From contig JAHLKU010000002.1 in the NCBI GenBank assembly GCA_020444505.1, forward strand, positions 50,921 to 114,920: 64,000 nt of DNA, written 5' to 3'. The DNA is from Actinomycetota bacterium. Lineage in GTDB: Bacteria; Actinomycetota; Acidimicrobiia; Spongiisociales; UBA11373. A program made the translations under genes and the position numbers. Numbering within the stretch: position 1 is the stretch's first letter; every line of letters begins with the position of its first letter. The notes beneath the pieces are model-generated. The model did not search any database, had not been told where the DNA came from, and saw only the letters and a list, made by a program, of their open reading frames with translations. This document shows positions 10,691-28,640 of this stretch, one piece after another.

Positions 10691-11179
10691 ATGCGCAGCC
10701 CGCTCGAACAGCGAGTGATCGGCCACCTCGATGCGCTCGGGGCCCGGTACGAGGTGCTGGACTGCGACCCCGCCCTGGCCGACACCGCCGCGTTCTGCGA
10801 GCACTACGGCTACGGCCTCGACGTGTCGGCCAACGCCATCGTCATCGCCTCCCGCCGCCCGCCGGGGGAGGTGTGCGTGTGCCTGGGCCTGGCGACCACG
10901 AGGCTGGACGTGAACCGCCGGGTGAAGGGCTTGATGGGCGTCTCCAAGCTGTCGTTCGCCCCGGCGGAGGCCACCGTGGAGGCCACCGGCATGGAGATCG
11001 GCGGGGTGACGCCGTTCGGCCTCCCCGACGGCCTGCCGGTGTACGTGGACGCCCGCATCCCGGCGCTGGAGCAGTGCATCGTTGGCGGCGGCAGCCGGGC
11101 GATCAAGCTGCTGGTGGACCCCGAGGTGTTCACCCGGATGCCGGGCGTCGAGGTGGTCGAGGGCCTGGCAACGGAGTAG
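10691..11179 (+). CDS. ybaK: YbaK/ProX-family aminoacyl-tRNA deacylase (Cys-tRNA(Pro) deacylase-like)
   Basis: Start at Met20 (MRSPLEQRV) of the track ORF. Carries the YbaK/EbsC-type motifs ...SANAIVIASRRP...GGVTPFGLP. Confidence 0.75.
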   Translation: MRSPLEQRVIGHLDALGARYEVLDCDPALADTAAFCEHYGYGLDVSANAIVIASRRPPGEVCVCLGLATTRLDVNRRVKGLMGVSKLSFAPAEATVEATGMEIGGVTPFGLPDGLPVYVDARIPALEQCIVGGGSRAIKLLVDPEVFTRMPGVEVVEGLATE

Positions 11180-11196
11180 CCGCCCGGGCGGGCCGA

Positions 11197-11877
11197 TCAG
11201 GGAGCGATGCCCTCGGCGCCGCTGGAGCCGATCCCCGACAGCAGCGCCCCCAGCCCCCATTCGAACTGGACGTCCGAGGCCACAGAGCCGACATGGGGCC
11301 GTGCGCTCCGGGTGACGGTGGGGTATGCGGCCGGGTCGAGCCGCCGGATGAGCTCGTCCCATTGGGCTGCGTACGCCTCCGGAGGCTGCAGGCGGCTCCT
11401 GGGGACCTCCCAGACCACGAAGCCGATCGTGTACGACAGGCAGGAGAAGAACGAGCGAACGCTCTCCTCGGGGCCCACTCCGTCGTGCTGCAGTTCTGTG
11501 AGCAGGTTCTCGAGGTGATCGAAGACGGCGGGGATCGTGACGCGCCCCCCCGCGAGGAGCCGGGTCAGCGCCGGATGAGCGAGTGCGATGCGCCTGAACG
11601 ACCGGAAGTACTCGGCGAGCCGTTCGAGGCCGCGGCCGGGAGGGACCTCGAGGTCCACGAACAGGGACGTCGCCATGCGGTCGAGCAGGTCCTCCTTGTC
11701 GCGGACGTAGCTGTAGAGGGTCATGGTCCCCACCCCGAGGCGGGCGCCGATCTTGGCCATGGACAGCCCGTCGAGCCCCACCTCGTCGACGATCGCGATG
11801 GCCGCATCGACCACCTGGTCGGCGCTGAGGCTCGGTGGACGGCCTGCCCGATGCGGTCCGGGGGCCCCGGCGTTCAT
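11197..11877 (-). CDS. TetR-family transcriptional regulator
   Basis: Start MNAGAPGP after a GGAGG RBS; MSTV at 11901 is an alternative start. The HTH is LSMAKIGARLGVGTMTLYSYVRDKEDLL. The long N-terminal extension in the track is an artefact. Confidence 0.8.
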   Translation of the reverse strand: MNAGAPGPHRAGRPPSLSADQVVDAAIAIVDEVGLDGLSMAKIGARLGVGTMTLYSYVRDKEDLLDRMATSLFVDLEVPPGRGLERLAEYFRSFRRIALAHPALTRLLAGGRVTIPAVFDHLENLLTELQHDGVGPEESVRSFFSCLSYTIGFVVWEVPRSRLQPPEAYAAQWDELIRRLDPAAYPTVTRSARPHVGSVASDVQFEWGLGALLSGIGSSGAEGIAP

Positions 11878-11907
11878 CACGGCCTCCTCGACAGTTGACA
11901 TGGTTGT

Positions 11908-11950
11908 CGTACCGACTACGATAATATGTCGTATGCAGTACGACAAGTCC
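11908..11950. promoter_or_regulatory. candidate TetR operator: 9-bp perfect inverted repeat in the divergent intergenic region
   Basis: TTGTCGTAC-N25-GTACGACAA, with an internal ACGATAATATGTCGT sub-palindrome, between tetR and the SRPBCC gene. This stretch is AT-richer than its surroundings. Confidence 0.35.
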
Positions 11951-11970
11951 ACGACCCCTGGAGAACGACG

Positions 11971-12417
11971 ATGATCACGTTTGCCAACACGCTCGAGATC
12001 GAGCGGCCCATCGACGACGTCTTCGCCTACCTCGGAGACCTCAGGCACGTCCCGGCGTGGAACTGGGCGGTGACCTCCACCCGCAAGGTGAGTGAGGGCC
12101 CGATCGGGGTGGGCACCGAGTTCCTGCAGACCCGGAGTACCCCCGCTCCCGCCACCGAGACGCTGAGGCTCACCGCCTTCGAACCACCGCACACGATCGC
12201 CATCGAAGGCGCGCTGGGCCCGTTCGCCGCACGGCTGCGCTACCGGCTCGAACAGGCCGGCGCCCTCACCAGGGTCGTCAACGACGTCGAGCTCACGTCT
12301 CCCGGAATGCTGAGGCTCGCGGCGCCGATCCTCGCCCGTCGCATCCAGGGGTCGGTCGCCGAGAACCTGCGGGTGCTCAAGGCACTCCTCGAGGGACCGC
12401 AGGCGGTCCGGAGGTGA
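11971..12417 (+). CDS. SRPBCC (Bet v1-like / polyketide cyclase-dehydrase) ligand-binding protein
   Basis: Start MITFANTLEIERPIDDVFAYLGDLRHVPAWN after a GGAGAA RBS. This is an SRPBCC signature. It sits divergent from tetR. Confidence 0.7.
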   Translation: MITFANTLEIERPIDDVFAYLGDLRHVPAWNWAVTSTRKVSEGPIGVGTEFLQTRSTPAPATETLRLTAFEPPHTIAIEGALGPFAARLRYRLEQAGALTRVVNDVELTSPGMLRLAAPILARRIQGSVAENLRVLKALLEGPQAVRR

Positions 12418-12476
12418 CGGCGACCGGCCCCGCAGACCGGCTCGACGGCAGGGCGACGCACGAAGGGGTGATCGGG

Positions 12477-13154
12477 ATGACGGCACGGCGCTCGACGGCA
12501 CGGTGGACCGGCGTCTCCTACCTGGTGATGGCCGTGGCGGGACTCATCGGGTTCCTGTTCGTGAGGAGCGAACTGTTCGTCGAATCCGACGCAGCCGCAA
12601 CACTGGCGAACCTGGTGCGGCGGCCGTCGCTCGCCAGGCTCGGGATCGTCGCCGACCTGACCGTGGTCGTCGCCCAGGCCATCACCGCCCTGTGGTTCCT
12701 CGAACTGTTCCGTGCGAGGAGCGGGCTCGCGGCGCGCTCGATCGCGGCATTCGGCCTGGTCAACGCCGGCGCGGTCCTGGTGGCCACCGCCTTCTCGGTT
12801 GCGGCCCTGGTCGTCGCCCACGACGCCTCGCTCGCACCCGGTGGGGATCAGGCCGCGACTGTGCAGGTGCTCTACCGGCTCGGGGGCGCGCTCTGGGACC
12901 TGGGAGGCGTGTTCTTCGGCCTGTGGCTCATCCCCATGGGGTATGCCGTGGCTGCGTCCAGGCGGATGCCGTCCGCTCTGGGCTGGGTGCTGGGGCTCGG
13001 CGGTGTCGGGTACGTGCTCAGCACCTACCTCACCCAGGCCTTCCCGGGCGCGCCGGCCGCGATCGAGGCGAGCCTGGTCGGACTGGCCACCGTGGGCGAG
13101 TTCTGGATGATCGGGCACCTGCTCTTCTCCAGGGCGGGCGAGCCGGAGCGATGA
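12477..13154 (+). CDS. membrane protein (DUF4386-like)
   Basis: Hydrophobic multi-TM ORF. A GTG at 12414 overlapping the upstream stop is an alternative start. Confidence 0.55.
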   Translation: MTARRSTARWTGVSYLVMAVAGLIGFLFVRSELFVESDAAATLANLVRRPSLARLGIVADLTVVVAQAITALWFLELFRARSGLAARSIAAFGLVNAGAVLVATAFSVAALVVAHDASLAPGGDQAATVQVLYRLGGALWDLGGVFFGLWLIPMGYAVAASRRMPSALGWVLGLGGVGYVLSTYLTQAFPGAPAAIEASLVGLATVGEFWMIGHLLFSRAGEPER

Positions 13155-13221
13155 GCAACGGAGTAGCCGCCCGGGCGGGAAAAGACACCGTCGCGGCCGC
13201 CCCCCTCCCTACGCTCGCCCC

Positions 13222-16129: not shown

Positions 16130-16318
16130 GTGTGTCCCGTCTACCTACCAGAACCCCGGGCGGCGTGCACCGGTTGCACCCCTCCGGCGGCGCATCCGGC
16201 ATTCCCCCTCGCGGGGGAGGGGCAACCCCCTGGCGGCGTGATGACGGCGCCGGCCCCGCGCCGCATGCTGAGCCCATGCACGGGACCCCTACCCTTCCCC
16301 ACGAGACGAGGCACTGAC

Positions 16319-17614: not shown

Positions 17615-18267
17615 CCAGGATCCTGATCGCCGACGACGACTCGCTGGTCCGCATGGGCCTGCAGGTGGTGCTCGACGGCGAGGACGGCCTGGAGGTGGTC
17701 GGCGAGGCCGCAGACGGGCGCGCCGCACTGCAGCAGGTGCGCGACCTCGACCCCGACCTGGTGATCATGGACATCCGCATGCCCAACCTCGACGGCCTGG
17801 CAGCCACCCGGGAGCTCACCCGCACCGGCGACCGGCCCAGGGTGCTCATCCTGACCACCTTCGAACTCGACGAGTACGTCTACGAGGCGCTGCGGGCCGG
17901 CGCCAGCGGGTTCGTCCTCAAGCGGGTGCCGCCCGCAGAGTTGATCGAGGCGGTCCGGGTGGTGGCCGGCGGCGAGTCGATGGTGTACCCGGCGGCCACC
18001 CGGCGGCTGGTGGAGCGGTTCGCCGCCCCCTCCCCGAGCCCGGAGCAGGCGAGGGCCATCGGCATGCTCACCGACCGCGAGCGAGAGGTGCTGCGCCTGC
18101 TGGCGCAGGGGCAGAGCAACCGGGAGATGAGCGAGCAGTTGTTCGTCGGCATGGAGACCGTCAAGAGCCATGTCGGCTCGGTGCTCCTGAAACTCGGCGT
18201 GCGCGACCGCACCCAGGCCGTGATCGCCGCCTACGAGACCGGCTTCATCCGGCCCGGGGAGGCGTAG
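17611..18267 (+). CDS. NarL/LuxR-family response regulator
   Basis: ATGA overlap with the HK. Receiver domain (ILIADDD...IMDIRMP) plus a LuxR HTH (REREVLRLLAQGQSNREM). Confidence 0.9.
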   Translation: MTRILIADDDSLVRMGLQVVLDGEDGLEVVGEAADGRAALQQVRDLDPDLVIMDIRMPNLDGLAATRELTRTGDRPRVLILTTFELDEYVYEALRAGASGFVLKRVPPAELIEAVRVVAGGESMVYPAATRRLVERFAAPSPSPEQARAIGMLTDREREVLRLLAQGQSNREMSEQLFVGMETVKSHVGSVLLKLGVRDRTQAVIAAYETGFIRPGEA

Positions 18268-18273
18268 GGAGGT

Positions 18274-18295
18274 ACGGGGTCCCGAGGGACCTCTG
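18274..18295 (+). repeat. island repeat copy 1 (ACGGGGTCCCGAGGGACCTCTG), at the left edge of the lower-GC island
   Basis: 7 nt after the RR stop. Palindromic core GGTCCC-GA-GGGACC. Confidence 0.6.
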
Positions 18296-18435
18296 GAGAG
18301 ACCTTCCTGCGGATCTCCTGCGACTGGGTGAGCCCGGGTGGGGTGCTGCCGGTGATGCCGAGCGTGTGGTCGGCGGCGACTGTGATCCGGAGCCGCAGGA
18401 GCCGATTTCCTACTGCAGCACCCGTGTGGGCCGTG

Positions 18436-18600
18436 CTATTTGTCGATGATGAGCAGTGCAGCGGTTGCCAGGGCGCCGACCGCCAGGATCTTGTCCGCAC
18501 CACCGAAGGTAAAGACCTCGAACAACATCAGTGCCCAGAACACCAGGACCACGGCCAGGGCTTGTTGCCAGAACCTTGGTTTGCCCAGTTTGAACTTCAT
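18436..18600 (-). CDS. small hydrophobic protein (54 aa, about 2 TM); absent from the ORF track (<60 aa)
   Basis: ATG preceded by a GGGAG RBS. Product is MKFKLGKPRFWQQALAVVLVFWALMLFEVFTFGGADKILAVGALATAALLIIDK. It lies in the lower-GC segment. Confidence 0.45.
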   Translation of the reverse strand: MKFKLGKPRFWQQALAVVLVFWALMLFEVFTFGGADKILAVGALATAALLIIDK

Positions 18601-18618
18601 GGGATCTCCCGCCCGTGC

Positions 18619-18789
18619 CTAGTCGAATACGCCAAAGATGCTGAGTCCGCCGAGCAGGATCCCGATGATGATGAGCACCACTCCCAGCATCATCTTGCGC
18701 CGGTACAAATAGACGGCCCCGGCGATGAGGCACACCACGCCGATGGCAATGCTGACTGTCATGGCGACCGCTGCGAGGATCACAGGCAT
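18619..18789 (-). CDS. small hydrophobic protein (56 aa, 2 TM); absent from the ORF track
   Basis: ATG preceded by an AAGGAG RBS at 6-nt spacing. Product is MPVILAAVAMTVSIAIGVVCLIAGAVYLYRRKMMLGVVLIIIGILLGGLSIFGVFD. Confidence 0.5.
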   Translation of the reverse strand: MPVILAAVAMTVSIAIGVVCLIAGAVYLYRRKMMLGVVLIIIGILLGGLSIFGVFD

Positions 18790-19007
18790 TTCGCACTCCT
18801 TGCTCTACGAGTGACAGTAGCCGTCCGGTGGCCACAGCGTCGGGGCCGTGCCGCCTTTGCCCGCAGTCCGCCCGACAAGGGGGGATGGGAATCGCCGGCA
18901 GGATTCGGCCTTGGGATGTGGAGATGGTCGTCTCGTCGGATCGAAGGCCGGTGGACGGCCTCCGCCCTGTGGCCTACATTGCTCATGCGGATGCAAGGAG
19001 GGCTTTT

Positions 19008-19418
19008 ATGAGCGACCGCGAGTCCGACAACGGACACCTTGAGGAAACCGGCCCGGCCCCGGAGGCGCCGGCCCCAGATGTGACAGGGTCGGGTCAGCCG
19101 GGGCTGTCCCCCTCTCCCAGACCGGAGCCCGCCGAGGTGGAGGTCCGTCGGGTCTTCGTCGGCACCGGCGTCTTCTGGGGATTGGCGATCGCGGTACTCC
19201 TGACGGTTGCCGTGATCATCCTCGCCGCCCAGAACACCCAGCAGATCACACTCGAGTTTCTTTCCTTCGAGATCGACACCCCTCTGATCGTGGTGCTGCT
19301 CGTCGCGCTGCTGATCGGCGTCGTCCTGGACGAGATCTTCGGCTGGGTCTATCGGGCTCGGCGGCGCCGCACACTCACCGACAGGGAAGAATTGAAGCAG
19401 TTGCGAGCCGACCGCTAA
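19008..19418 (+). CDS. LapA-domain (DUF1049) membrane protein
   Basis: Start Met61 (MSDRESD) after a GGAGGG RBS. A TM is followed by QNTQQITLEFLSFEIDTPLIVVLLVALLIGVVLD, which is LapA-like. Confidence 0.6.
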   Translation: MSDRESDNGHLEETGPAPEAPAPDVTGSGQPGLSPSPRPEPAEVEVRRVFVGTGVFWGLAIAVLLTVAVIILAAQNTQQITLEFLSFEIDTPLIVVLLVALLIGVVLDEIFGWVYRARRRRTLTDREELKQLRADR

Positions 19419-19802
19419 CGGAACACCCAGCAGGGAACAACGATCCGCTCTGAGCCTTCCAATTGTGGCGGGACTCCGCAGGGCCTTCATCCCTATCGTC
19501 GTTAACCCTCACCTCCTGGCCGACGATGGCGAAGACAGCGGGCAATCCGGGGCGCACGTGGGAGGCTCGTCCCGCGCCGGTACCCCCGCCTCCCGTTCCA
19601 GAAGCCCAGGCGGCATCAAACGATCGCGAATCGGAATGGGACCGCAGACCCAGCCGACTCCTGACCGGAGTTCTGAAGAGACTCCTGAGGAACCTTCCCA
19701 GGGGCCTCGGGTTGTTTTGGTGAGTCCGTGTCCCGGAAGGTCTGGCCGCGGAACGGCACCAGTGAGTGGCGTCGCCGCTCCGGGCGGTGTGTGTTCGACG
19801 AC

Positions 19803-21140
19803 TCAATCGATCGATTGATTGCTCAGGTCAGACGTCGCTGACTCGAAACGATCGCGGTGAGCAGATCGAACTCGCTCGTGATCTAGCGCGGGTAGATCAG
19901 CCATCTCGCTGACCTCAAGGGCTAGATCGGCTTGACTCCGCAACGCAGCCGTCGCTTCGTCGCCATTCGCAGCCGAAGCGATCGACGTCGTGAGCAGGTG
20001 CAGGATCTCGAGGAGGTAGATCTGCACGGTAGGCATCCCTGCCGATGCCAAGCGGATCTCGTCGAACGCCAATCCCACGATCTCGGCATGCGTCCAGGCT
20101 CGTGGTATCAGAAGTTCACGGCCCTCCTCGCCAGAGAGATGACGAGTGGGAACGTTTCTGACGAGCAGTTCCCGAAGGACCGCTCCCAAGTGGAACATCG
20201 CGTCCTGGGCCGTTGTCGGGTCGTTGATGCCCGGCGAGAGTGCTTTCAGTGCCACGTCGGCAAGCTGACGCAAGCCGTAGGTGACATCGCCCTGAGCGGT
20301 CCGAGTCTGTCCGACTCCGATGGCATGACGGACTCGACGCTCGACCACGTCCGGATCAGATGGCGTCGGCACGATCCGGCACAACGGCGTCGCCACGATC
20401 GCGTACCGGCCGGCGACGGTATCGAGCCACATCGTCGCGCCGGGTTCGAGCGCCCTGAGAAGGGCACTGTGATCGACCTGTTGCACCCACCCGCTCCGTT
20501 CGAAGGTGACCACGAAGGCGTCGTCCGGCGCAGTCTCGCCGGTGGATTCCTCCCGTGCAGCATCAGTGTCGCTGCCCTCTCCCCACTGGGCCGACACCTC
20601 AGCGATCGCCGCCTCGGTGACGCCATGCAGGATCTTCGAGATGTCCATCGAGTGAGCGGCGTGGCTGATGAAGGCAACGATCGCGAGGATCGTGGTGATA
20701 CCGAGGAGCAACGCCACCGCAATCGAGAGACTGGGGATGACGGCCTCCCCACCGCCATCGAGAGGACTGCGCACAGCGCGCAGCACGACGAGGCAGTAGG
20801 TGAACGTCCCGATCACCACGCCCATGACGCGCTTGTTGAATGGGTCGCGGAAGAGTCCGTGGACGACACGGGGTGAGTACTGACTCGAGGACAGCGAGAT
20901 CAGCAAGAGGCTTACGGAGAACGCGATGCCGGCGAACGCGATCGTGGCGCCGGCGATCACCCCCAACACGGCTCGGGCGCTGTCCACCGTCGCCGTCAGG
21001 CCGGTCGGGATGTTCGTGACTTGCTGATCAGCCCACAGGAACAGTTGGCCTAGTCCCAAGCCGACCATCGTGAGGATCATCGGCGTGTAGAACAGACTGC
21101 TCTTCAACTTCTCCCGGATGGACCTCAGCCGAGTGATCAT
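19803..21140 (-). CDS. DUF2254-like integral membrane protein
   Basis: 445 aa with N-terminal TMs and a large C-terminal domain. A perfect palindrome CAATCGATCGATTG overlaps its stop codon. Confidence 0.75.
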   Translation of the reverse strand: MITRLRSIREKLKSSLFYTPMILTMVGLGLGQLFLWADQQVTNIPTGLTATVDSARAVLGVIAGATIAFAGIAFSVSLLLISLSSSQYSPRVVHGLFRDPFNKRVMGVVIGTFTYCLVVLRAVRSPLDGGGEAVIPSLSIAVALLLGITTILAIVAFISHAAHSMDISKILHGVTEAAIAEVSAQWGEGSDTDAAREESTGETAPDDAFVVTFERSGWVQQVDHSALLRALEPGATMWLDTVAGRYAIVATPLCRIVPTPSDPDVVERRVRHAIGVGQTRTAQGDVTYGLRQLADVALKALSPGINDPTTAQDAMFHLGAVLRELLVRNVPTRHLSGEEGRELLIPRAWTHAEIVGLAFDEIRLASAGMPTVQIYLLEILHLLTTSIASAANGDEATAALRSQADLALEVSEMADLPALDHERVRSAHRDRFESATSDLSNQSID

Positions 21141-21542
21141 GCGCCGGTCTGCTCTCTCTTGGTGTGGCGAGATCGCGCCGCTGTCTGACCCTACCTACCG
21201 GTCCTCGTATCCGCGGCCGTCCGGATACCCCGTTCACATGAACGGATTCTTTCATCGGCGCACCACACGGCAATCCGGACGAGCAGATCTGCCCCCACAA
21301 CCGTTGGCTGGGTGATGGCCGACTTCGGTGGCGCCGACCAGCTGGAGGGGACGCATAGGGGGTTCGAAAGAGAGCGACTGCGTTGGGTGGGAGCGGTGGC
21401 CCTGACCTGGCCTCTGACCTTCGGCAACGTTGCTGCACTCACAACGAGTGAGCCTGAAGGGACTCTGAGACCGCGTACGGCCACAAGGGCCGCGTTATCC
21501 AGAAGGCAACCTGAACGCGATGTCCGGAACGGCCAACTCTTG

Positions 21543-21565
21543 ACAGGGGCCCCGAAGCACCTCTG
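21543..21565 (+). repeat. island repeat copy 2 (ACAGGGGCCCCGAAGCACCTCTG, variant)
   Basis: Lies in the 547-bp non-coding stretch 21141..21687. Confidence 0.5.
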
Positions 21566-21687
21566 CGGAAGCTTCGCTGTCGATGGCGAGGGGTCTGTCG
21601 CCGGGGATGTTGCCGTGAATGTCGAGGGATCGGTCCGGGGCGACTCGTATGTCGGATCGGAGCGAACTGTGCTGCTCGTTCTCCCAG

Positions 21688-22632
21688 TCATCGGCTCCCT
21701 GATTGAAGCGGTGGGCTCGCACAACGGAATCCCAAGTTATTCAACTGAGTCTCGCGAGGATTCCTGAGGCGGAATGCACAACGCACGTTGCGGCGCGTGC
21801 CCATCCAGGAACCACCGCGCATCACCTTGAATCGCCGCCCGAAGTTCTCGTGTTCTGCCTGGCTGCCGGGGTACGCGTCATACCAGGAGTCACACCACTC
21901 CCACACATTGCCCGCCATGTCCAACAAGCCGTGAGGACTGGCGCCAGCGGGGAACTCGCCGACAGCCGTCGTACGGACTGATTGGAGCAGAGTGTCGTTC
22001 TCAGCCCACCATTCCTGCCACTGGCTCACCTTCAGCATTTCGCTCGTGGTGAGACGTTCGGCGCAATTGAGCCGTTCCTGATCCCACGCGTCACCCCATG
22101 GGTACCGGCGCCCATCCTCACCCCGGGCGCCCTTCTCCCACTGCTCCTCGCTGGGCAGCGCCTTGCCGACCCAACGGCTATAGGCGTGTGCGTCATCCCA
22201 GCTCACCAGCACCACCGGGTGATCCAGCAACGTCTCCGGAGGACGACGGCTCTGTTCGTCCCAGTTGTACGGTTCGGCCCCCGGTTCGTCCACTACCGGG
22301 ACTGGATGGTCCGGATTCGCAGCCAGGAACCGAACGTACTCATCGTGCGTCACCGGCACCACATCGAGGTAGAAGTCAGGCAACGTCTCTTGACGCTGGG
22401 GGGTTTCTGCCATCGCCCAAGGCAATGACCACTCGTACTCATCGACCATTTGCCTGGCGTCGGCCTCTGTCGTCCCCATGATGAATGCGCCGGCCGGGAT
22501 CAAGGCCATCTCTCTGCGGTCTTCTGCCCAGACGATGCGCGGTGGCAGCTCCGCGGCACCCTGCAACTGCTCCCATGATTCGATCAGTGGCAATCCCCGG
22601 TCACTCACCTGCCACTGCGCGCTCTCGCTCAT
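21688..22632 (-). CDS. formylglycine-generating enzyme (FGE-sulfatase/SUMF1) domain protein
   Basis: Start MSESAQWQ, which is Met307 of the 620-aa track ORF, after an AAGGCAGGA RBS. Motifs IPAGAFIMG, RGGSW and GFRC. The upstream 306 codons are non-coding-like. Confidence 0.8.
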   Translation of the reverse strand: MSESAQWQVSDRGLPLIESWEQLQGAAELPPRIVWAEDRREMALIPAGAFIMGTTEADARQMVDEYEWSLPWAMAETPQRQETLPDFYLDVVPVTHDEYVRFLAANPDHPVPVVDEPGAEPYNWDEQSRRPPETLLDHPVVLVSWDDAHAYSRWVGKALPSEEQWEKGARGEDGRRYPWGDAWDQERLNCAERLTTSEMLKVSQWQEWWAENDTLLQSVRTTAVGEFPAGASPHGLLDMAGNVWEWCDSWYDAYPGSQAEHENFGRRFKVMRGGSWMGTRRNVRCAFRLRNPRETQLNNLGFRCASPPLQSGSR

Positions 22633-22906
22633 TCCTGCCTTCTCTTTTCTCTGCCGGGCGGAGGCTGCAGCGAACTGATCGTGGTTGACCAACTGCCCGA
22701 TCCAGTTTCCGTGGGCGTCCTGTCGGAACTCCTCCGGATACGGTCGACGTATGCCAGGTTTCCTTCCGTTGGGTCGGCGTGACGAAATGTCCCCAGAGGA
22801 GATCCAATGGTAGGTGAGACGTCCTGGGATTCCCCGTGCCTGATCAGCGCCTACCCAACCGATCGGAGATTGGGTCGAGATGGAATGCAATGGCGGGAAG
22901 GTTTCT

Positions 22907-22927
22907 GTAGGGGTCCCGAGGGGCTGC
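22907..22927 (+). repeat. island repeat copy 3 (TGTAGGGGTCCCGAGGGGCTG)
   Basis: Lies in the divergent gap between the FGE and serine hydrolase genes. Confidence 0.55.
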
Positions 22928-22975
22928 CGACTCGTCTGCTCCAGTGGTCCCGGACTCGGACAGTAGGCTCGCCGG

Positions 22976-24139
22976 ATGCGATGGCTGCGCTGGATCCTGA
23001 TCACACTCGGGTCATTCCTCGCGCTCGGTGCGATCCTGATGGCGGCGTGGTCGATCGCAATCGGGCCTGCCGCAGTGTGGAGGGTCCTCACCCACGGTAC
23101 GACCACCGTCTGGGACCACCTCGAATATCCGGGCAGGGACCTCGAAGCTTCAGATTCCCCACGCCCGTGGACCGTCGACGAGGGTGCGGTGCCGGTGGTG
23201 TTGGTGGACGGCAGGGAGTTGCGGCTGCCCGAAGTCCTGGCCGAGCGCAATGCCCTCGCCTTTCTGGTCATTCGCGACGGCGTGATCGAGTACTCATGGG
23301 CAGCCCCGGGGCATTCGGTATCGACTCCATCGATGCTGTTCAGCATCACCAAGTCGGTGACATCTCTGATGATTGGGGCTGCGATCGAGGACGGTTTGAT
23401 CGGCTCCGTCGGCGACGCCGTCACCGTGTACCTCCCCGAATTGTCTACTCGTGGATTCGAGGATGTGACGATCGAGGATGCTCTGCAGATGGACACGGGT
23501 TCGATGTATGTCGAAGGCGACAACCCTTTCGGGATACACGTCGAGTTCAACTACACCGACCGTCTTGAGAGCCGGATCTTGGGCTTGGCGGCCGACGCCG
23601 AGCGTCGAGGTGAGTTCACGTACAAGTCCGGGGACAACGCGCTCCTGGGTCTGATCCTTCACCGGGCGGTGGAACCGGAGAGCATCTCGGAGTACTTGCA
23701 GCGGAGGCTGCTGAACCCGCTTGGGGTCGAAGACGGCGGCGTGTGGAGCACCGACCACGATGGGGGACTGGAGCGGACATGGTGCTGTCTGGCCTTGTCG
23801 GCTCGGGATCTGGCCCGGCTTGGCCAACTGATAGTCGACGGCGGCGTCAGTGGTGGTGCCCGCGTGATCTCACAGGGATGGCTCGATTCGTCCTTCGCCA
23901 CCCACTATGGACCCGAACGGTGGCCGTCAGAGTACGCCGAGACGTTGCTCGCCGACTACGGATACCAGTGGTGGTTGCTGAACGACGGTTCGGTGCTCGC
24001 GCTCGGCAAGGACGGCCAATACCTCTACGTCGACACTGCGCGTCGGCTTGTGCTTGTGCGCACAGGCACGTCGCAAGGCGGAATCGGGTGGCTCGACGTT
24101 CTCCGGCAGATCGCCGAGGCCTATCCAGTCATCGACTAG
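22976..24139 (+). CDS. beta-lactamase-related serine hydrolase (class C/PBP4-like esterase)
   Basis: 387 aa. An N-terminal TM is followed by the S-x-x-K motif FSITKSVTS and a C-terminal ...GWLDVL pattern. Confidence 0.85.
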   Translation: MRWLRWILITLGSFLALGAILMAAWSIAIGPAAVWRVLTHGTTTVWDHLEYPGRDLEASDSPRPWTVDEGAVPVVLVDGRELRLPEVLAERNALAFLVIRDGVIEYSWAAPGHSVSTPSMLFSITKSVTSLMIGAAIEDGLIGSVGDAVTVYLPELSTRGFEDVTIEDALQMDTGSMYVEGDNPFGIHVEFNYTDRLESRILGLAADAERRGEFTYKSGDNALLGLILHRAVEPESISEYLQRRLLNPLGVEDGGVWSTDHDGGLERTWCCLALSARDLARLGQLIVDGGVSGGARVISQGWLDSSFATHYGPERWPSEYAETLLADYGYQWWLLNDGSVLALGKDGQYLYVDTARRLVLVRTGTSQGGIGWLDVLRQIAEAYPVID

Positions 24140-24210
24140 GGATGCCCGCCCGGCGGGGGAGGAACGCTGTGGCCTTCGCAGGAGGGATCGAGGGAGAACG
24201 GGAGTCCTGT

Positions 24211-24242
24211 GAACTCCCGACAGGGGTCCCGAGGGGCCTCTG
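24211..24242 (+). repeat. island repeat copy 4 (GAACTCCCGACAGGGGTCCCGAGGGGCCTCTG)
   Basis: Lies between the convergent serine hydrolase and Fic genes. Confidence 0.6.
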
Positions 24243-24243
24243 A

Positions 24244-24271
24244 CCCCAGCCGACCTAGGTTGGGGCTGGGG
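24244..24271. terminator. hairpin CCCCAGCC-N12-GGCTGGGG spanning the Fic stop codon; candidate bidirectional terminator
   Basis: 8-bp perfect stem immediately 3' of repeat copy 4. Confidence 0.35.
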
Positions 24272-25418
24272 CGTCGTAGACGGCAGCCATGATCGATGCC
24301 GCTTGGTAGATGCGGTTCCGCGCTCGGCCGGTGATCTCTCTGAGATGGCCGAGTTCCTGGAGAGCCTCTATGGCCGCCTGCGCTGTGGGGAAGGTGACAT
24401 CCAGCATCCTGGCTACCTGCGGAGCTGTCACATACGGGCGATCGATCAGGCGTTCAGCAAGGCGAATCGTGGTCAATGTTGCACCGCCTTCCTGAAGGCC
24501 GACTCGCAAGTCCCGCTGGAGATCCACAAGGGCAACGGTCCGTTCCTCGGCGTCCCGGGCGTATGGCGCAACTCCCCTGAGGAAGTAGTCGAGCCACGCG
24601 AAGGGACTACCGCCGAAGCGTGTCTCATCCAGGCGCGCGTAGTACTCAGCGCGGTCTCGTTCGAAGTAGGCCGAGAGGTAGAGCACCGGAATCGAGAGGA
24701 CCCCCCTATCGATCAGCATCAGCGGGATCAGGAGTCGACCGATCCGCCCGTTCCCGTCAACGAAGGGGTGAATCGTCTCGAACTGGTAGTGAGCGAGTGC
24801 CACGGCGACGAGATTCGGAAGGTCTCGACCATGAATGAAGTGCTCCAGCGCACCAATCGCTCCCGGTACCTCGTCAGGCGGTGGTGGGACGAAGATTGCG
24901 TCGGCCAACAGGGTCCCGGGGGGTCCGATCCAGTTCTGCGTCGTCCTGAACTCACCAGGCAGGGCGTGCTCGCCGCGCACCCCTCGCATCAGGATGGCAT
25001 GGGTCTCCTTGATGAGGCGGCTGGAGAGAGGCAGGGTGGCTAGCCGGTCTTGGGCGTGTCGGAGCGCGTCCACATAGTTGAGGACTTCTTGCACGTCTTC
25101 GCGCCCCTCGACCTCCCCGCCCGCCTCGAGAAGGAGAAGGTCCCCGACCGTGGCCTGTGTGCCCTCGATTCGGCTACTCAGAACGGCTTCGAGTCGCACA
25201 TAGGGCCCAATCAGGATGTCAGCGGTTGGCAGCAGCCGACTGACCCCAGCTAGCCGATGTACGGCAGCGGTGGCTTCGGTCAGAAGGTTGACAGTGCTCT
25301 CTGGGTAGTCGAGCGTGACAGGCAGATCCGCAGGGTAGAAGGCGTCATAGCCGCCGGGGGCGCGTCGCAGCGTCCCGGGATTCCAGACACCGTCGTTGGC
25401 CGTCATGATCGCTGTCAA
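24255..25418 (-). CDS. Fic-family adenylyltransferase (class II, N-terminal auto-inhibitory helix)
   Basis: Fic motif HPFVDGNGRIGR. An inhibitory (S/T)xxxE(G/N) helix is present as SSRIEG. A wHTH-like C-terminus is also present. Confidence 0.9.
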   Translation of the reverse strand: MTAIMTANDGVWNPGTLRRAPGGYDAFYPADLPVTLDYPESTVNLLTEATAAVHRLAGVSRLLPTADILIGPYVRLEAVLSSRIEGTQATVGDLLLLEAGGEVEGREDVQEVLNYVDALRHAQDRLATLPLSSRLIKETHAILMRGVRGEHALPGEFRTTQNWIGPPGTLLADAIFVPPPPDEVPGAIGALEHFIHGRDLPNLVAVALAHYQFETIHPFVDGNGRIGRLLIPLMLIDRGVLSIPVLYLSAYFERDRAEYYARLDETRFGGSPFAWLDYFLRGVAPYARDAEERTVALVDLQRDLRVGLQEGGATLTTIRLAERLIDRPYVTAPQVARMLDVTFPTAQAAIEALQELGHLREITGRARNRIYQAASIMAAVYDAPAPT

Positions 25419-25562
25419 ACTCCGCGATAGTCGCCGTCTGGACTATTAAAGCACATCGGTGTTCGCTTTATTAACGAACCGGCGTGGTTGAGTCTGTCTT
25501 GATTGGACAGTTGGCTTCGACCGGGTCTCTGAGGGTTGGAGAGCCACCGCGAACTGAGCAGC

Positions 25563-25598
25563 GAACTCCCGACAGGGGTCCCGAGACACCCCGGTCTG
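25563..25598 (+). repeat. island repeat copy 5 (GAACTCCCGACAGGGGTCCCGAGACACCCCGGTCTG)
   Basis: Lies between the isochorismatase stop and the Fic start. A GCGAACT half-copy sits just upstream. Confidence 0.6.
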
Positions 25599-25618
25599 CC
25601 CGGGTGACAGGTGTCACA

Positions 25619-26152
25619 TCAGGCGGCCGGGAGTGTCCAGTCCGCCATCACATCTGCGGCGGAGCGGAGCTTCCCGAAGGACGCCAGCTGCAGGTTCACG
25701 GACTCGATCACCGACGCCGCCGGGTCGTCCCCATCGAACGTCGAGTGGCCGTCCTCCACGACAACGACCTCCAGGTCGCTTCGTGCTGCTCCCCTGGACG
25801 TCGCGCTCACGCAGTACTCGCTCTGGAGGCCGGCGATCACCACCGAGGTCACGCCGGCTCTCTCGATGAAGCCCATGAGCTCCTCGGTGGCGAAGGCGTC
25901 CGGCCCCCACTTGTCCACGATGAGGTCGCCCGGGTGGGGAGCCAGTCGCGGATGGATCTCCCATCCCGGCGTACCGGGGGCGTCCGGGTCCTCTTCGCCG
26001 CCGTTGTTGCGAACGAAGACGATGGGGATCTGTCGGCGTCGCGCTGCCGCCACGAGGTCCTCCAGACGCTGCAGCAGAGGCGCAGCGTCATGGGCCGGTG
26101 TGGGCTCGAACATGTTCACTTGAGCATCGATGACGATGAGTGCCTGGGACAT
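25619..26152 (-). CDS. isochorismatase-family cysteine hydrolase
   Basis: 177 aa with the isochorismatase fold pattern LIVIDAQ...VIAGLQSEYCV. Confidence 0.85.
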   Translation of the reverse strand: MSQALIVIDAQVNMFEPTPAHDAAPLLQRLEDLVAAARRRQIPIVFVRNNGGEEDPDAPGTPGWEIHPRLAPHPGDLIVDKWGPDAFATEELMGFIERAGVTSVVIAGLQSEYCVSATSRGAARSDLEVVVVEDGHSTFDGDDPAASVIESVNLQLASFGKLRSAADVMADWTLPAA

Positions 26153-26228
26153 GCGGCGAGACTACCCGAACACACGTTCGGCCTCAATCGGAGTCGTCGA
26201 TTGCCTCCTCGATGTGGTCCGACACAGC

Positions 26229-26256
26229 GAACTCATCACAGGGGTCCCGAGGGGCG
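26229..26256 (+). repeat. island repeat copy 6 (GAACTCATCACAGGGGTCCCGAGGGGCG)
   Basis: Lies in the divergent gap between the isochorismatase and LLM genes. Confidence 0.6.
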
Positions 26257-26451
26257 GGATTCCTCGAGCCTCGATCATCCGGCCGCAAACCCTGGAAGGG
26301 TGGCCGACTGGGTCGTGCTCCGCGCCCGCGTGCCGGCGCGTCCCTGTCGTTGGGGGCGATGCCGCCGGTGCCGTAGGGTGGCACTCGACCAGCGAGAGGG
26401 CCGCCGAAGCGTTCGGCTGCGGTTCGTTCGCTCGAGTGAGAGGGGTGCCAC

Positions 26452-27417
26452 GTGGCAGAGAGCGATCGTCCGGCGCTCAGATTCGGTGCCGACTGCTTCA
26501 GCCAGCACACAGACTGGCCGTCGTACCTGCACGCGATGCGGACGGCTGAGGATCTGGGCTACGACTCACTGTGGACGCCGGACCACCTGATCCCGACGCC
26601 GCCCGGTGCCGACCCCGAGGGCCCGATCCTGGAGCCGTACACGTGTCTGGCCGGAGTCGCTGCGATGACGTCGAGGGCCACGGTCGGATGCCTGGTCAGC
26701 CCGATCAGCCTTCGCCAACCGGCACTCCTGGTGAAGATGGTCACGGCTCTCGATCACGTGAGCGACGGACGTGCCGTGCTGGCGGTGGGCTCCGGATGGC
26801 ATCGAGAGGAGCATCGGCAGTACGGATTCGAGTTCGGAAGCGGATTCGGAGAGCGGCTCGATTGGCTTCGACAGGCCCTCCCGGTGATGCGCGGGATGCT
26901 CGATGGAATCCGGCCGTCGTCGTCCGGAGGTCGATACGACGTCCGGGAAGCCGTGAACTCTCCCGCACCCGTTCAGGCCCGCCTCCCGATCCTCATCGGG
27001 GGCTCCGGCCCCAAGGTGACACTTCGGCTGGTCGCCGAGTACGGGGACATGTGCAACCTGATCGGATCACCCGACCAGGTCGCGGTCGCCGAGGCCAGAC
27101 TGGTCGAGCACTGTGAGGCCGTGGACAGGGATCCATCCCAGATCGAACGAACGGTCGCAATCCGCCAACCGATCATCCGAGACTCCCACACAGAAGCCGA
27201 GCAGGTGCTGAACGAGGTCTTTGCCCACAACGACTCCGAGCCGTGGAGCCGGGACATGGTCGGGACCCCGCACGACCTTGTCGAGAGATGTGCTCCCTAC
27301 GTCGAGATGGGGTACCGGCATCTCATCTTCCAGTTCCTCGCCCCCTTCGACGGGGAGACGATGGAACGCCTCGCAACGGAGGTGAGGCCCCAGCTCGAGG
27401 CCATCGCCGCCGCCTGA
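26452..27417 (+). CDS. LLM-class F420-dependent oxidoreductase (luciferase-like monooxygenase family)
   Basis: GTG start. TIM-barrel LLM motifs LWTPDHL...LAVGSGW...LIGGSGPK. Confidence 0.85.
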   Translation: MAESDRPALRFGADCFSQHTDWPSYLHAMRTAEDLGYDSLWTPDHLIPTPPGADPEGPILEPYTCLAGVAAMTSRATVGCLVSPISLRQPALLVKMVTALDHVSDGRAVLAVGSGWHREEHRQYGFEFGSGFGERLDWLRQALPVMRGMLDGIRPSSSGGRYDVREAVNSPAPVQARLPILIGGSGPKVTLRLVAEYGDMCNLIGSPDQVAVAEARLVEHCEAVDRDPSQIERTVAIRQPIIRDSHTEAEQVLNEVFAHNDSEPWSRDMVGTPHDLVERCAPYVEMGYRHLIFQFLAPFDGETMERLATEVRPQLEAIAAA

Positions 27418-27493
27418 TCCGCCGAGATCTCCCGTGCAGCCTCCTGGTGTGTGCCACGTGATGTGCTCAGACGGAACCGAACGGGACCACAGC

Positions 27494-27530
27494 GGAGTCC
27501 CGACAGGCACCCCGCACCGGTGGTCCCGGG
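27494..27530 (+). repeat. island repeat copy 7 (degenerate: GGAGTCCCGACAGGCACCCCG...GGTCCCGGGG), at the right edge of the island
   Basis: 17 nt upstream of the lipoprotein gene stop, where GC returns to about 72%. Confidence 0.45.
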
Positions 27531-27546
27531 GCGCGGGATCGGTCGC

Positions 27547-28572
27547 CTAGGGCCGTGATCCGGCGGCGAACGCCAGCCAGGCGTCCCACGCGATGCGGGG
27601 CTCCCCGGACGAGTCGAACAGGCCCATCGTGGAGAACGGCTCGCCGATCGGCTGGTCGTACATGAACGCCCAGGTGACGAACCCGACGTCGAGGCCGGCG
27701 AGCATCTCCTCGAACCGCGTGATGAACTCGGCCTGGAGGCCCGGGTCCCCGGTGTAGGGGCCCAGGTCGCCGCCGGCCTGCCAGCCGACCTCGGTGAATG
27801 CGATCGGACGATCGACGTGGTCGAGGATCGAGGAGTAGTACTCGTCGGGGAGATCGGCCGGCGACTCGAACACCAGGCCCGGGTAGGTCGTGAAGGCGAT
27901 CAGGTCTGCGTCGGGGAAGTCGTCGATGAGGTGCCAGGTGGCCGCTTCCGGGTCGTTCTCACCTCCGAAGAGGCCCCCGTGCATGCCGCGCATCCGCTCC
28001 AGCTGGAACACGACGAAGACGCTGGTCTCGGGCGACGATGCTTCGACCGCGGCAGCGAACCGCGCGAACATCTCGGTCGCACGTCCCCACTCGTCGGGAT
28101 GCGCCCGCCAGTTGCTGTCGACCTCGACCCCGAAGCCCATGAAACGCGGACGGTGGCGCGCGGCGAACGAGGCCGCGGCCTCCACGTACCCGTCGGCCGC
28201 CTCGTCGGTCGGCGGCCGGAGGAACTCTCCGTCTTCGGTCCGGGACCACCCCCCGACGGTGACGGCCACGACGCCCGTCTGGGCTGCGATCCCGGCCGTC
28301 GCCTCCGGGCCGGCATCGGGCTCCCCCCACTCCATGGCATCACCCACCCACTCCAGGAGCGTGGCGCCTTCGGCGAGGTGGTCCAGGAACGCTGCGAAGT
28401 CCTCGGGCGACGTGCTCCGCGGCGACACGGAGAAGCCGCGCAACGGATCGCCGCCGGCCTCCCCCGATCCGCCGGCGGTGGCGGGAGACGGCGTCCCCGC
28501 GTCCTGGCCGCACGCCCCGGCGAGCAGGGCGGCCACCGTGACGACGAGCCAGATGCGACGCATGCGGGGCAT
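27547..28572 (-). CDS. secreted lipoprotein, glycoside-hydrolase-like (TIM-barrel) domain; function uncertain
   Basis: Signal peptide plus lipobox LLAGACG; 341 aa. Confidence 0.6.
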   Translation of the reverse strand: MPRMRRIWLVVTVAALLAGACGQDAGTPSPATAGGSGEAGGDPLRGFSVSPRSTSPEDFAAFLDHLAEGATLLEWVGDAMEWGEPDAGPEATAGIAAQTGVVAVTVGGWSRTEDGEFLRPPTDEAADGYVEAAASFAARHRPRFMGFGVEVDSNWRAHPDEWGRATEMFARFAAAVEASSPETSVFVVFQLERMRGMHGGLFGGENDPEAATWHLIDDFPDADLIAFTTYPGLVFESPADLPDEYYSSILDHVDRPIAFTEVGWQAGGDLGPYTGDPGLQAEFITRFEEMLAGLDVGFVTWAFMYDQPIGEPFSTMGLFDSSGEPRIAWDAWLAFAAGSRP

Positions 28573-28640
28573 CGTAGAGCCGCGTCCCCACCGCGCGGGA
28601 GGCCCTCAGGCCCGTTCACGGCGCGTCGCCGCCTCGCCCC

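Follow-up and report, generated by a model that had tools for sequence, protein, structure and literature searches.

The stretch analysed in this study is a 64,000-nt segment (the window) of contig JAHLKU010000002.1 (positions 50,921 to 114,920 of the forward strand, assembly GCA_020444505.1) from a bacterium of the class Acidimicrobiia, and the subject is an island of lower guanine and cytosine (GC) content at 18268–27546 that is divided by seven copies of a repeat. The GC content of this block is 64.0%, compared with 72.6% and 73.5% in the left and right flanks, and 1-kb windows give 62–67% at 18–28 kb and 70–78% in the rest of the window. The GC drop recorded in the initial annotation is therefore real, although its range of 55–63% was somewhat too low. 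GC at the third codon position (GC3) is 0.71–0.83 in the island genes and 0.90–0.98 in the genes for NarL, a histidine kinase and other neighbours, and it separates the block from its surroundings more sharply than GC does. Sliding-window GC and codon usage had been proposed as checks on the island, and it is low in both GC and GC3. The gene content read from the sequence was confirmed by Pfam: LapA_dom and DUF2254 proteins, an FGE-sulfatase, a beta-lactamase fold, Fic, isochorismatase and a luciferase-like monooxygenase. No tRNA gene is present in the window, and a scan of 17–29 kb with Rfam 15 gave no family; its single match, to Acido-1 (E = 0.8) at another place in that region, is below threshold and attributable to chance. 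In contigs of the same strain from Logan (L001–L003, SRR14069905/12), short-read assemblies fragment to ~4 kb within the island, which is consistent with assembly interrupted by the repeats or with population heterogeneity.

The seven copies, designated c1 to c7, were recovered by a repeat finder, a mismatch scan and an nhmmer profile, and all are intergenic and on the + strand, as first described (Table 1). The earlier description of a uniform repeat holds for c2, c4, c5 and c6, which are full sites, but c1 consists of the palindrome only, c3 has a divergent arm and c7 has a degenerate core. A motif common outside the boundaries had been named as an observation that would count against a boundary role; a profile built from related copies gave no convincing further copy in the other 54 kb of the window. 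The full asymmetric 32-mer consensus has an expectation of 0.00 in shuffled sequences, while the bare 14-mer palindrome with one mismatch was found 10 times against 7.2 expected and does not exceed chance by itself. The significance of the repeat therefore rests on the longer asymmetric site.

Table 1 Repeat copies, cassettes and insertion edges in the window.
Feature	Position	Strand	GGGG core start	Peptide-like arm	Basis or remark
c1, array-start site (type B1), palindrome only, GGGAGG-TAC-GGGGTCCCGAGGGACCTCTGG	18268–18297	+	18276		Directly after the NarL TAG
Segment 1: two small ORFs, LapA_dom protein, DUF2254	18298–21506				Pfam, gene calls on L003, GC3 0.75–0.76
LapA_dom protein (segment 1)	18828–19418	+			Pfam
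DUF2254 gene (segment 1)	19803–21140	-			Pfam
c2, full site, arm type A1 and core ACAGGGGCCCCGAAGCACCTCTG	21507–21569	+	21546	21507–21545	nhmmer E = 3.4e-12
FGE-sulfatase family gene, cassette 2	21688–22632	-			Pfam PF03781, E = 6e-57; start probably at MSESAQ
c3, second arm type (A2), ...ATGGCGGGAAGGTTTCTG-TAGGGGTCCCGAGGGGCTGCCG	22857–22930	+	22910	22857–22906	Same arm in L052, L053, L039, L038, L051
Beta-lactamase-fold serine hydrolase, cassette 3	22976–24139	+			Pfam PF00144
c4, full site, best match to family consensus	24176–24253	+	24223	24176–24222	nhmmer E = 3.4e-15; 0 mismatches to 32-mer
Fic/DOC protein with helix-turn-helix domain, cassette 4	24255–25418	-			Pfam Fic_N, Fic, HTH_13
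c5, full site	25555–25604	+	25575	25555–25574	nhmmer E = 2.7e-9
Isochorismatase-family hydrolase, cassette 5	25619–26152	-			Pfam PF00857
c6, full site	26196–26274	+	26241	26196–26240	nhmmer E = 2.2e-10
Luciferase-like monooxygenase, cassette 6	26452–27417	+			Pfam PF00296
c7, terminal site, arm conserved, core interrupted or degenerate (GACAGG-CACCCCGCACCGGT-GGTCCCGGGGCGC)	27470–27540	+	27506	27470–27507	Weak nhmmer match, E = 4.5
'Lipoprotein' gene, inside inserted block	27547–28572	-			GC3 0.91, no Pfam family
c8, tentative inverted degenerate start-type site, TAG-GGGGCGAGG...GGGCCTGAGGGCCTCC	28598–28640	-			Read from sequence; directly after the reductase stop
Inserted block (island and 'lipoprotein' gene), 10.4 kb	18266–28640				Absent from three relatives

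In the full site, which is ~75 nt long, an asymmetric arm of ~50 nt precedes an imperfect palindrome, (G)ACAGGGGTCCC-GA-GGGGCCTCTG(AC). Conservation is high in the arm, the left half and the loop; the right half varies but tends to remain complementary to the left half. Three types of left side were distinguished: A1 (...GCGAACTCCTG-ACAGGGG), to which c2, c4, c5, c6 and c7 belong; A2 (...ATGGCGGGAAGGTTTCTG-TAGGGG), represented in the window by c3; and the arm-less B1 (GGGGAGG-TCAGGGG), represented by c1 and elsewhere also by GGGGAGG-TCAGGGGYCCCGAG. In the orientation of the repeat, an array has its B1 copy first and the full sites after it. The B1 copies typically lie just 3' of the stop codon of a co-oriented core gene, for example rplL, prfB or the gene for a CBS-domain protein/sigma factor or a 5'-3' exonuclease (GC3 0.86–0.95 for these), or that for an amidohydrolase; in the window it is the NarL gene. 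A DUF222-HNH endonuclease gene, of the family of the mycobacterial REP13E12 repeats, adjoins one start copy (L006, 319–1497; L045, 5231–6409) and was seen only this once.

The repeat is not restricted to the window. Pattern scans found it in ~50 loci (handles beginning with L) of metagenome-assembled genomes (MAGs) of Acidimicrobiia and Actinomycetota and of metagenomes: 185,579 species genomes yielded 21 loci, ~14 of them from Acidimicrobiia or Actinomycetota MAGs, and JGI metagenomes yielded 39 further loci. A scan of viral contigs gave 0 matches and hence no sign of a phage-borne attP. Removal of duplicates left 75 distinct full sites and 29 copies that matched only the right part of the profile. 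Among the latter, ~17 are true arm-less B1 starts, three are chance matches in non-actinobacterial loci, and the others are type-A2 sites and weak or degenerate full sites. At all 27 loci with two or more copies the copies are co-oriented, with a spacing of mostly 0.5–3 kb (median 1.2 kb). The genes between them run in both directions, and their GC3 is below that of the core genes on either side. PIN, DUF4386, zinc alcohol dehydrogenases, guanylate cyclases, the beta-lactamase fold, DinB_2 and methyltransferases recur as cassette families; this cargo, which also includes hydrolases, is typical of accessory genes. In L040 (1–4619), homology to the L014 array ends exactly at a site that has only the left half, and the remainder of the contig has a much lower GC (g1 0.5–0.59); the break marks a true end of the array or else comes from chimeric assembly at the repeat. 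Our literature search found no paper that contained the motif or described such arrays in Acidimicrobiia.

Pairs of related loci show where the cassettes are exchanged. L050 and L060 have one cassette in common at 99.7% identity, and its neighbours differ on both sides; the identity starts just after a C/G difference in GGGGT[C/G]CCGAG and stops just after CCCGAGGGGC. In L048 and L051 both chromosomal flanks are 97–99% identical and the cassettes between them differ (3.0 kb and 1.75 kb, respectively); here the identity breaks off after CCCGAGGG and returns with CCCGAGGGACC. L014 contains two copies of one right-hand cassette behind different left halves (2211 onward and 7854 onward, 98% identity), and the identity begins in the core, after the C/T position of the loop. 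Finally, L014 and L019, which belong to different MAGs, have a cassette in common (93% identity), and the shared segment ends 3 nt from the core. Taken together, these breakpoints confine the exchange to the 6–8-nt centre of the palindrome, CCCGAGGG, and most tightly to GAGGG. The sole asymmetry in this centre is the dinucleotide GA. With 60–75 nt of homology between the repeats, general homologous recombination would be expected to spread the breakpoints, and their restriction to 6–8 nt points to conservative site-specific recombination. The left and right palindrome halves do not covary (p = 0.23), which is consistent with re-assortment of the halves.

An empty counterpart of the locus is present in three related genomes (L069, L070 and L072), in which NarL has 80–84% amino-acid identity and synteny with the window is preserved on both sides. 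There the stop codons of NarL and of a convergent PF27054 reductase gene are separated by 3–21 nt, nothing is inserted between them, and no copy of the repeat occurs in the 12–20 kb of these three loci. The comparison with relatives proposed in the initial annotation thus shows that the segments are not syntenic. Homology between the window and the relatives jumps from ~18265 to ~28641. The insertion is thus larger than the island first described, which ended at the 'lipoprotein' gene, and extends to 28640. This gene is found again, together with just 35 nt of upstream DNA and at 85% identity, at another locus in another relative, where it is followed by a full site and different cargo and a cation-efflux gene adjoins (window 27547–28607; L025 531–1600; L026 1440–2509). 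Its composition is native-like, yet its behaviour is that of a mobile unit. The homology between L025 and the window starts at 28607, within the putative site c8, which no profile match supports. If c8 is genuine it would mirror c1, which tentatively suggests a second short array that faces the first and meets it at the degenerate c7 (27518–27540). The NarL stop is TAG in the window (18265–18267) and TGA in all three empty-site relatives, and T(A/G)(A/G)-GGGGAGG-TCAGGGG is the reading of several array-start copies at other loci. Possibly the insertion provides the upstream gene with its stop codon or exchanges the existing one.

The arm has the character of a coding sequence. On the strand opposite to the repeat it reads as a conserved peptide tail, ...PRDPC[QR]EF[AT]xIxFxLxPIR, followed by a stop codon, in the window copies (Table 1) and likewise in L004–L068. 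Arm lengths differ between copies mostly by multiples of 3, the information content dips at every third base, and none of the other five frames has as few stops or as good substitution scores as the peptide frame. The A2 arms, whose DNA is very different from that of A1, encode a similar peptide (PRDP[YC]RNLPA[IM]xFHL...), and many of the differences fall on the third base of a codon. No intact coding-type gene reads into any of the 75 sites. Several placements of the frame were considered and rejected. The arm is not the C-terminus of the adjacent gene, since its frame differs from that of the gene and the upstream open frames, judged by GC at each codon position, are spurious and out of frame. 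An independent small ORF in place is contradicted by the lack of an in-frame start codon in 27 of the 75 arm copies, and a short + strand ORF ending at the TGA in CCTGACAGG by the lack of this stop in many copies (including c4–c6) and by the worse scores of that frame. Nor could the tail be assigned to a known protein: a profile search against 5.8 billion sequences gave no protein family and a single match at E = 1.6. The arm is either the fossil of a gene end that the system formerly targeted or a sequence that is translated only in another configuration.

Repeats on a single strand, the foreign GC3 of the genes between them, re-assortment with breakpoints in the core and the empty site together make it probable that the island is an array of mobile gene cassettes, put together through conservative site-specific recombination at a site dedicated to it. 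The initial annotation had favoured a cassette array, integron-like or built by another site-specific recombination system, over promoter or regulon elements, and the breakpoints in the core and the occurrence of cassettes in differing contexts support that view. Strand exchange would take place in the centre of the palindrome, within CCCGAGGG, so that a linear cassette would begin with a right half-palindrome and end with the arm and a left half-palindrome. Excision between two adjacent direct sites would release a circle with one complete site, and its re-insertion at any other site would rebuild an array that starts with an arm-less copy at a core-gene stop codon and continues with full sites on one strand. 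The recombinase would presumably act in trans from a gene outside the arrays. A serine recombinase would be in keeping with short inverted half-sites that surround a single asymmetric dinucleotide, and a tyrosine recombinase with a 6–8-bp overlap would fit equally. The seven inner (loop-proximal) pairs of the palindrome show 148 G.T against 16 A.C oppositions, and the + strand folds better (Wilcoxon p = 6e-4). Because of this bias, a folded + strand hairpin may be the substrate, as in attC recombination or with HUH enzymes that nick in a loop.

Several observations weigh against such an array. No recombinase appeared among the best 25 families listed in Pfam and PHROGs scans of ~200 ORFs beside arrays and in the window (batches of 46, 127 and 34), and the ORFs beside array starts, at array ends and inside large cassettes included no integrase, resolvase or transposase and no conserved neighbour gene. 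These batch scans are weak evidence of absence, since a single weak match could be missed; the earlier statement that the window holds no recombinase is consistent with them to the extent of the 25 families listed. No circular form or excision product was seen. The empty site in the relatives contains no recognisable target palindrome at which an array could first have been seeded, and by the same comparison the arm-less start sequence GGGGAGG is not chromosomal, which hints at some other insertion step. The absence of covariation between the palindrome halves means that a hairpin has no positive support from that side. In addition, most of the data come from MAG and metagenome contigs, in which repeats can produce mis-assembly.

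The arm and its coding character bear most directly on an alternative in which the array arose by tandem accretion of integrative elements, each repeat being the 3' end of a target gene with its terminator hairpin and the cassettes being cargo-only remnants whose integrases were lost. tRNA-gene islands and tycheposon islands form by similar accretion. A coding-like tail on the opposite strand, with lengths in threes, 3-nt periodicity, a conserved stop codon and two arm families that differ mainly at third codon positions, fits this history, and a second insertion in the window (described below) is flanked by a 25-nt repeat of a gene end and a palindrome. As in islands at gene 3' ends (tRNA-gene islands, Prochlorococcus tycheposons and SSV-type 'gene capture'), the direct repeats resemble gene-end copies and the cargo lies side by side at a hotspot. 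However, there is no intact target gene at an array end or reading into the 75 sites, the tail matches no protein family, the array-end genes are mutually unrelated, neither integrases nor their fragments were found, and the units are single-gene cassettes of 0.5–1.5 kb, too small for autonomous elements. We consider accretion unlikely for these reasons. The palindrome itself invites comparison with the repetitive extragenic palindrome (REP) and the bacterial interspersed mosaic element (BIME), which are likewise GC-rich, imperfectly palindromic, intergenic and close to gene 3' ends. REP-like terminators in acquired DNA might recombine by ordinary homologous or replication-slippage recombination with no dedicated recombinase. 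The hairpin core often lies 3–120 nt past the stop of a convergent gene (68% of right-hand genes), the start copies follow stop codons and a recombinase was not found, all of which would agree with terminators. This explanation is nevertheless somewhat less likely still, because the sites are confined rather than dispersed in core DNA (0 copies across the 54 kb of core genome that the window contains and none in the 12–20 kb of the three relatives), are strictly co-oriented at 27 of 27 loci whatever the gene direction, mark cassette breakpoints with an exchange within 6–8 nt despite the homology available, and belong to arrays with a defined start-type copy; the conserved ~50-nt asymmetric arm would also be unneeded for a terminator. 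It is highly improbable that the repeats belong to one regulon, as operators or promoters to which a transcription factor binds. The palindromic core and the TTGACA present in some copies (c2, L005, L012) would agree with this role, but the site strand is fixed whatever the gene orientation, also between convergent genes (c4, c7), the breakpoints of cassette presence and absence lie in the site, the cargo is functionally unrelated, and neither a conserved regulator adjoining the arrays nor a constant distance to start codons was observed.

Integrons are the one well-understood machine that collects and shuffles single genes, and a canonical integron array without an integrase (CALIN) that has unusual attC sites would resemble the present arrays in many respects. 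Both consist of mostly single-gene foreign cassettes with one direct site per boundary (27 of 27 loci here, median spacing 1.2 kb) and a distinct first site at one end, an array topology and polarity that match attI/attC. In both, the cassettes re-assort between genomes and carry PIN toxin-type and small-enzyme cargo, and a folded single strand may play a role. The sites themselves are different. Alignment of the 75 full sites revealed no RYYYAAC/GTTRRRY boxes: the GCGAAC-type sequences on the left depart from RYYYAAC, and the right flank, variable beyond +15, lacks a conserved GTT box. RNAalifold on the same 75 sites and both strands gave only a weak short core stem, with no pairing of the arm to the flank or end to end and no attC-like long hairpin. 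The crossover maps inside CCCGAGGG in the centre of the palindrome and not at the G|TT of an attC core box. The attC-like option in the initial annotation is consequently not borne out: the R''/R' boxes, the extended hairpin and the G|TT crossover are all missing. Other differences from integrons and CALIN are the sequence-conserved site of a ~50-nt arm and a 28-nt palindrome without R''/L''/L'/R' architecture, cassette genes in both directions, several arrays at different chromosomal loci that each lie just after a core-gene stop codon, and the lack of an adjacent integrase, no IntI tyrosine recombinase gene appearing beside the start-type copies or among the 25 best families of the batch scans. 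The host phylum is one in which integrons are essentially unknown, complete integrons being absent from Actinobacteria in the IntegronFinder 2.0 survey (PMC9024848). An integron array of this kind is thus very unlikely. Modules moved by Xer recombination, namely those flanked by pdif on Acinetobacter plasmids and the integrative mobile elements exploiting Xer (IMEX) at dif, are also small, have short sites with inverted half-sites and do not encode their recombinase. Sites of the dif type, 28 bp long and recognised by XerC/XerD, are AT-rich with an 11-6-11 layout, and pdif sites alternate in orientation. Set beside the dif consensus, the present sites show no resemblance; they are GC-rich, are all direct within an array and have a long one-sided arm, with no inverted flanking sites of the pdif kind. 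Moreover, GC skew rises steadily through the window and the arrays do not lie at the replication terminus. With regard to IS200/IS605-type elements and palindrome-associated transposable elements (PATE), each boundary carries one site in place of distinct left-end and right-end hairpins per element, and the scanned ORFs included no transposase, Y1 or other.

The cassette array built by site-specific recombination is, by the site features compared above, integron-like in function and outside the integron family, and it would be categorically new should its recombinase prove novel. We tentatively extend this to a broader proposal, which is plausible but falls a little short of probable: Acidimicrobiia and related Actinomycetota would own an independently evolved, integron-like cassette capture with a ~75-nt site that includes a peptide-constrained arm, exchange at the loop or centre of a hairpin formed by the + strand, seeding at core-gene stops, and a recombinase that is encoded elsewhere and may be of a kind so far not connected with cassette arrays. 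If true, a second and unrelated cassette system would explain how flexible islands are built in the streamlined genomes of a widespread environmental class of actinobacteria. The 75-nt site would serve as a simple sequence tag for harvesting accessory-gene cassettes from metagenomes, and a recombinase acting on a short, well-mapped site would await discovery. The coding-like arm raises the question of why a peptide reading frame is conserved in a recombination site.

Two other spots in the window vary between relatives. The gap between the sigma-factor and histidine kinase genes contains no copy of the repeat; it holds ~4 kb including a TIR-domain gene and a TrkA_N/RyR gene in L069 (4790–9135), a luciferase-like monooxygenase gene in L070 (6783–7848) and nothing in the window (16179–16314). 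A second small insertion relative to L069 and L070 lies at 11163–13178 and holds an ORF with a GC3 of 0.77 (11200–12543, - strand) and a DUF4386 gene (12414–13154, + strand). It is flanked by a 25-nt direct repeat, GCAACGGAGTAGCCGCCCGGGCGGG, in which a gene end with a stop codon is combined with a GC palindrome. DUF4386 belongs to the recurrent cassette families as well, and a 3' fragment of the DUF4386 gene of the window abuts a full site in L025.

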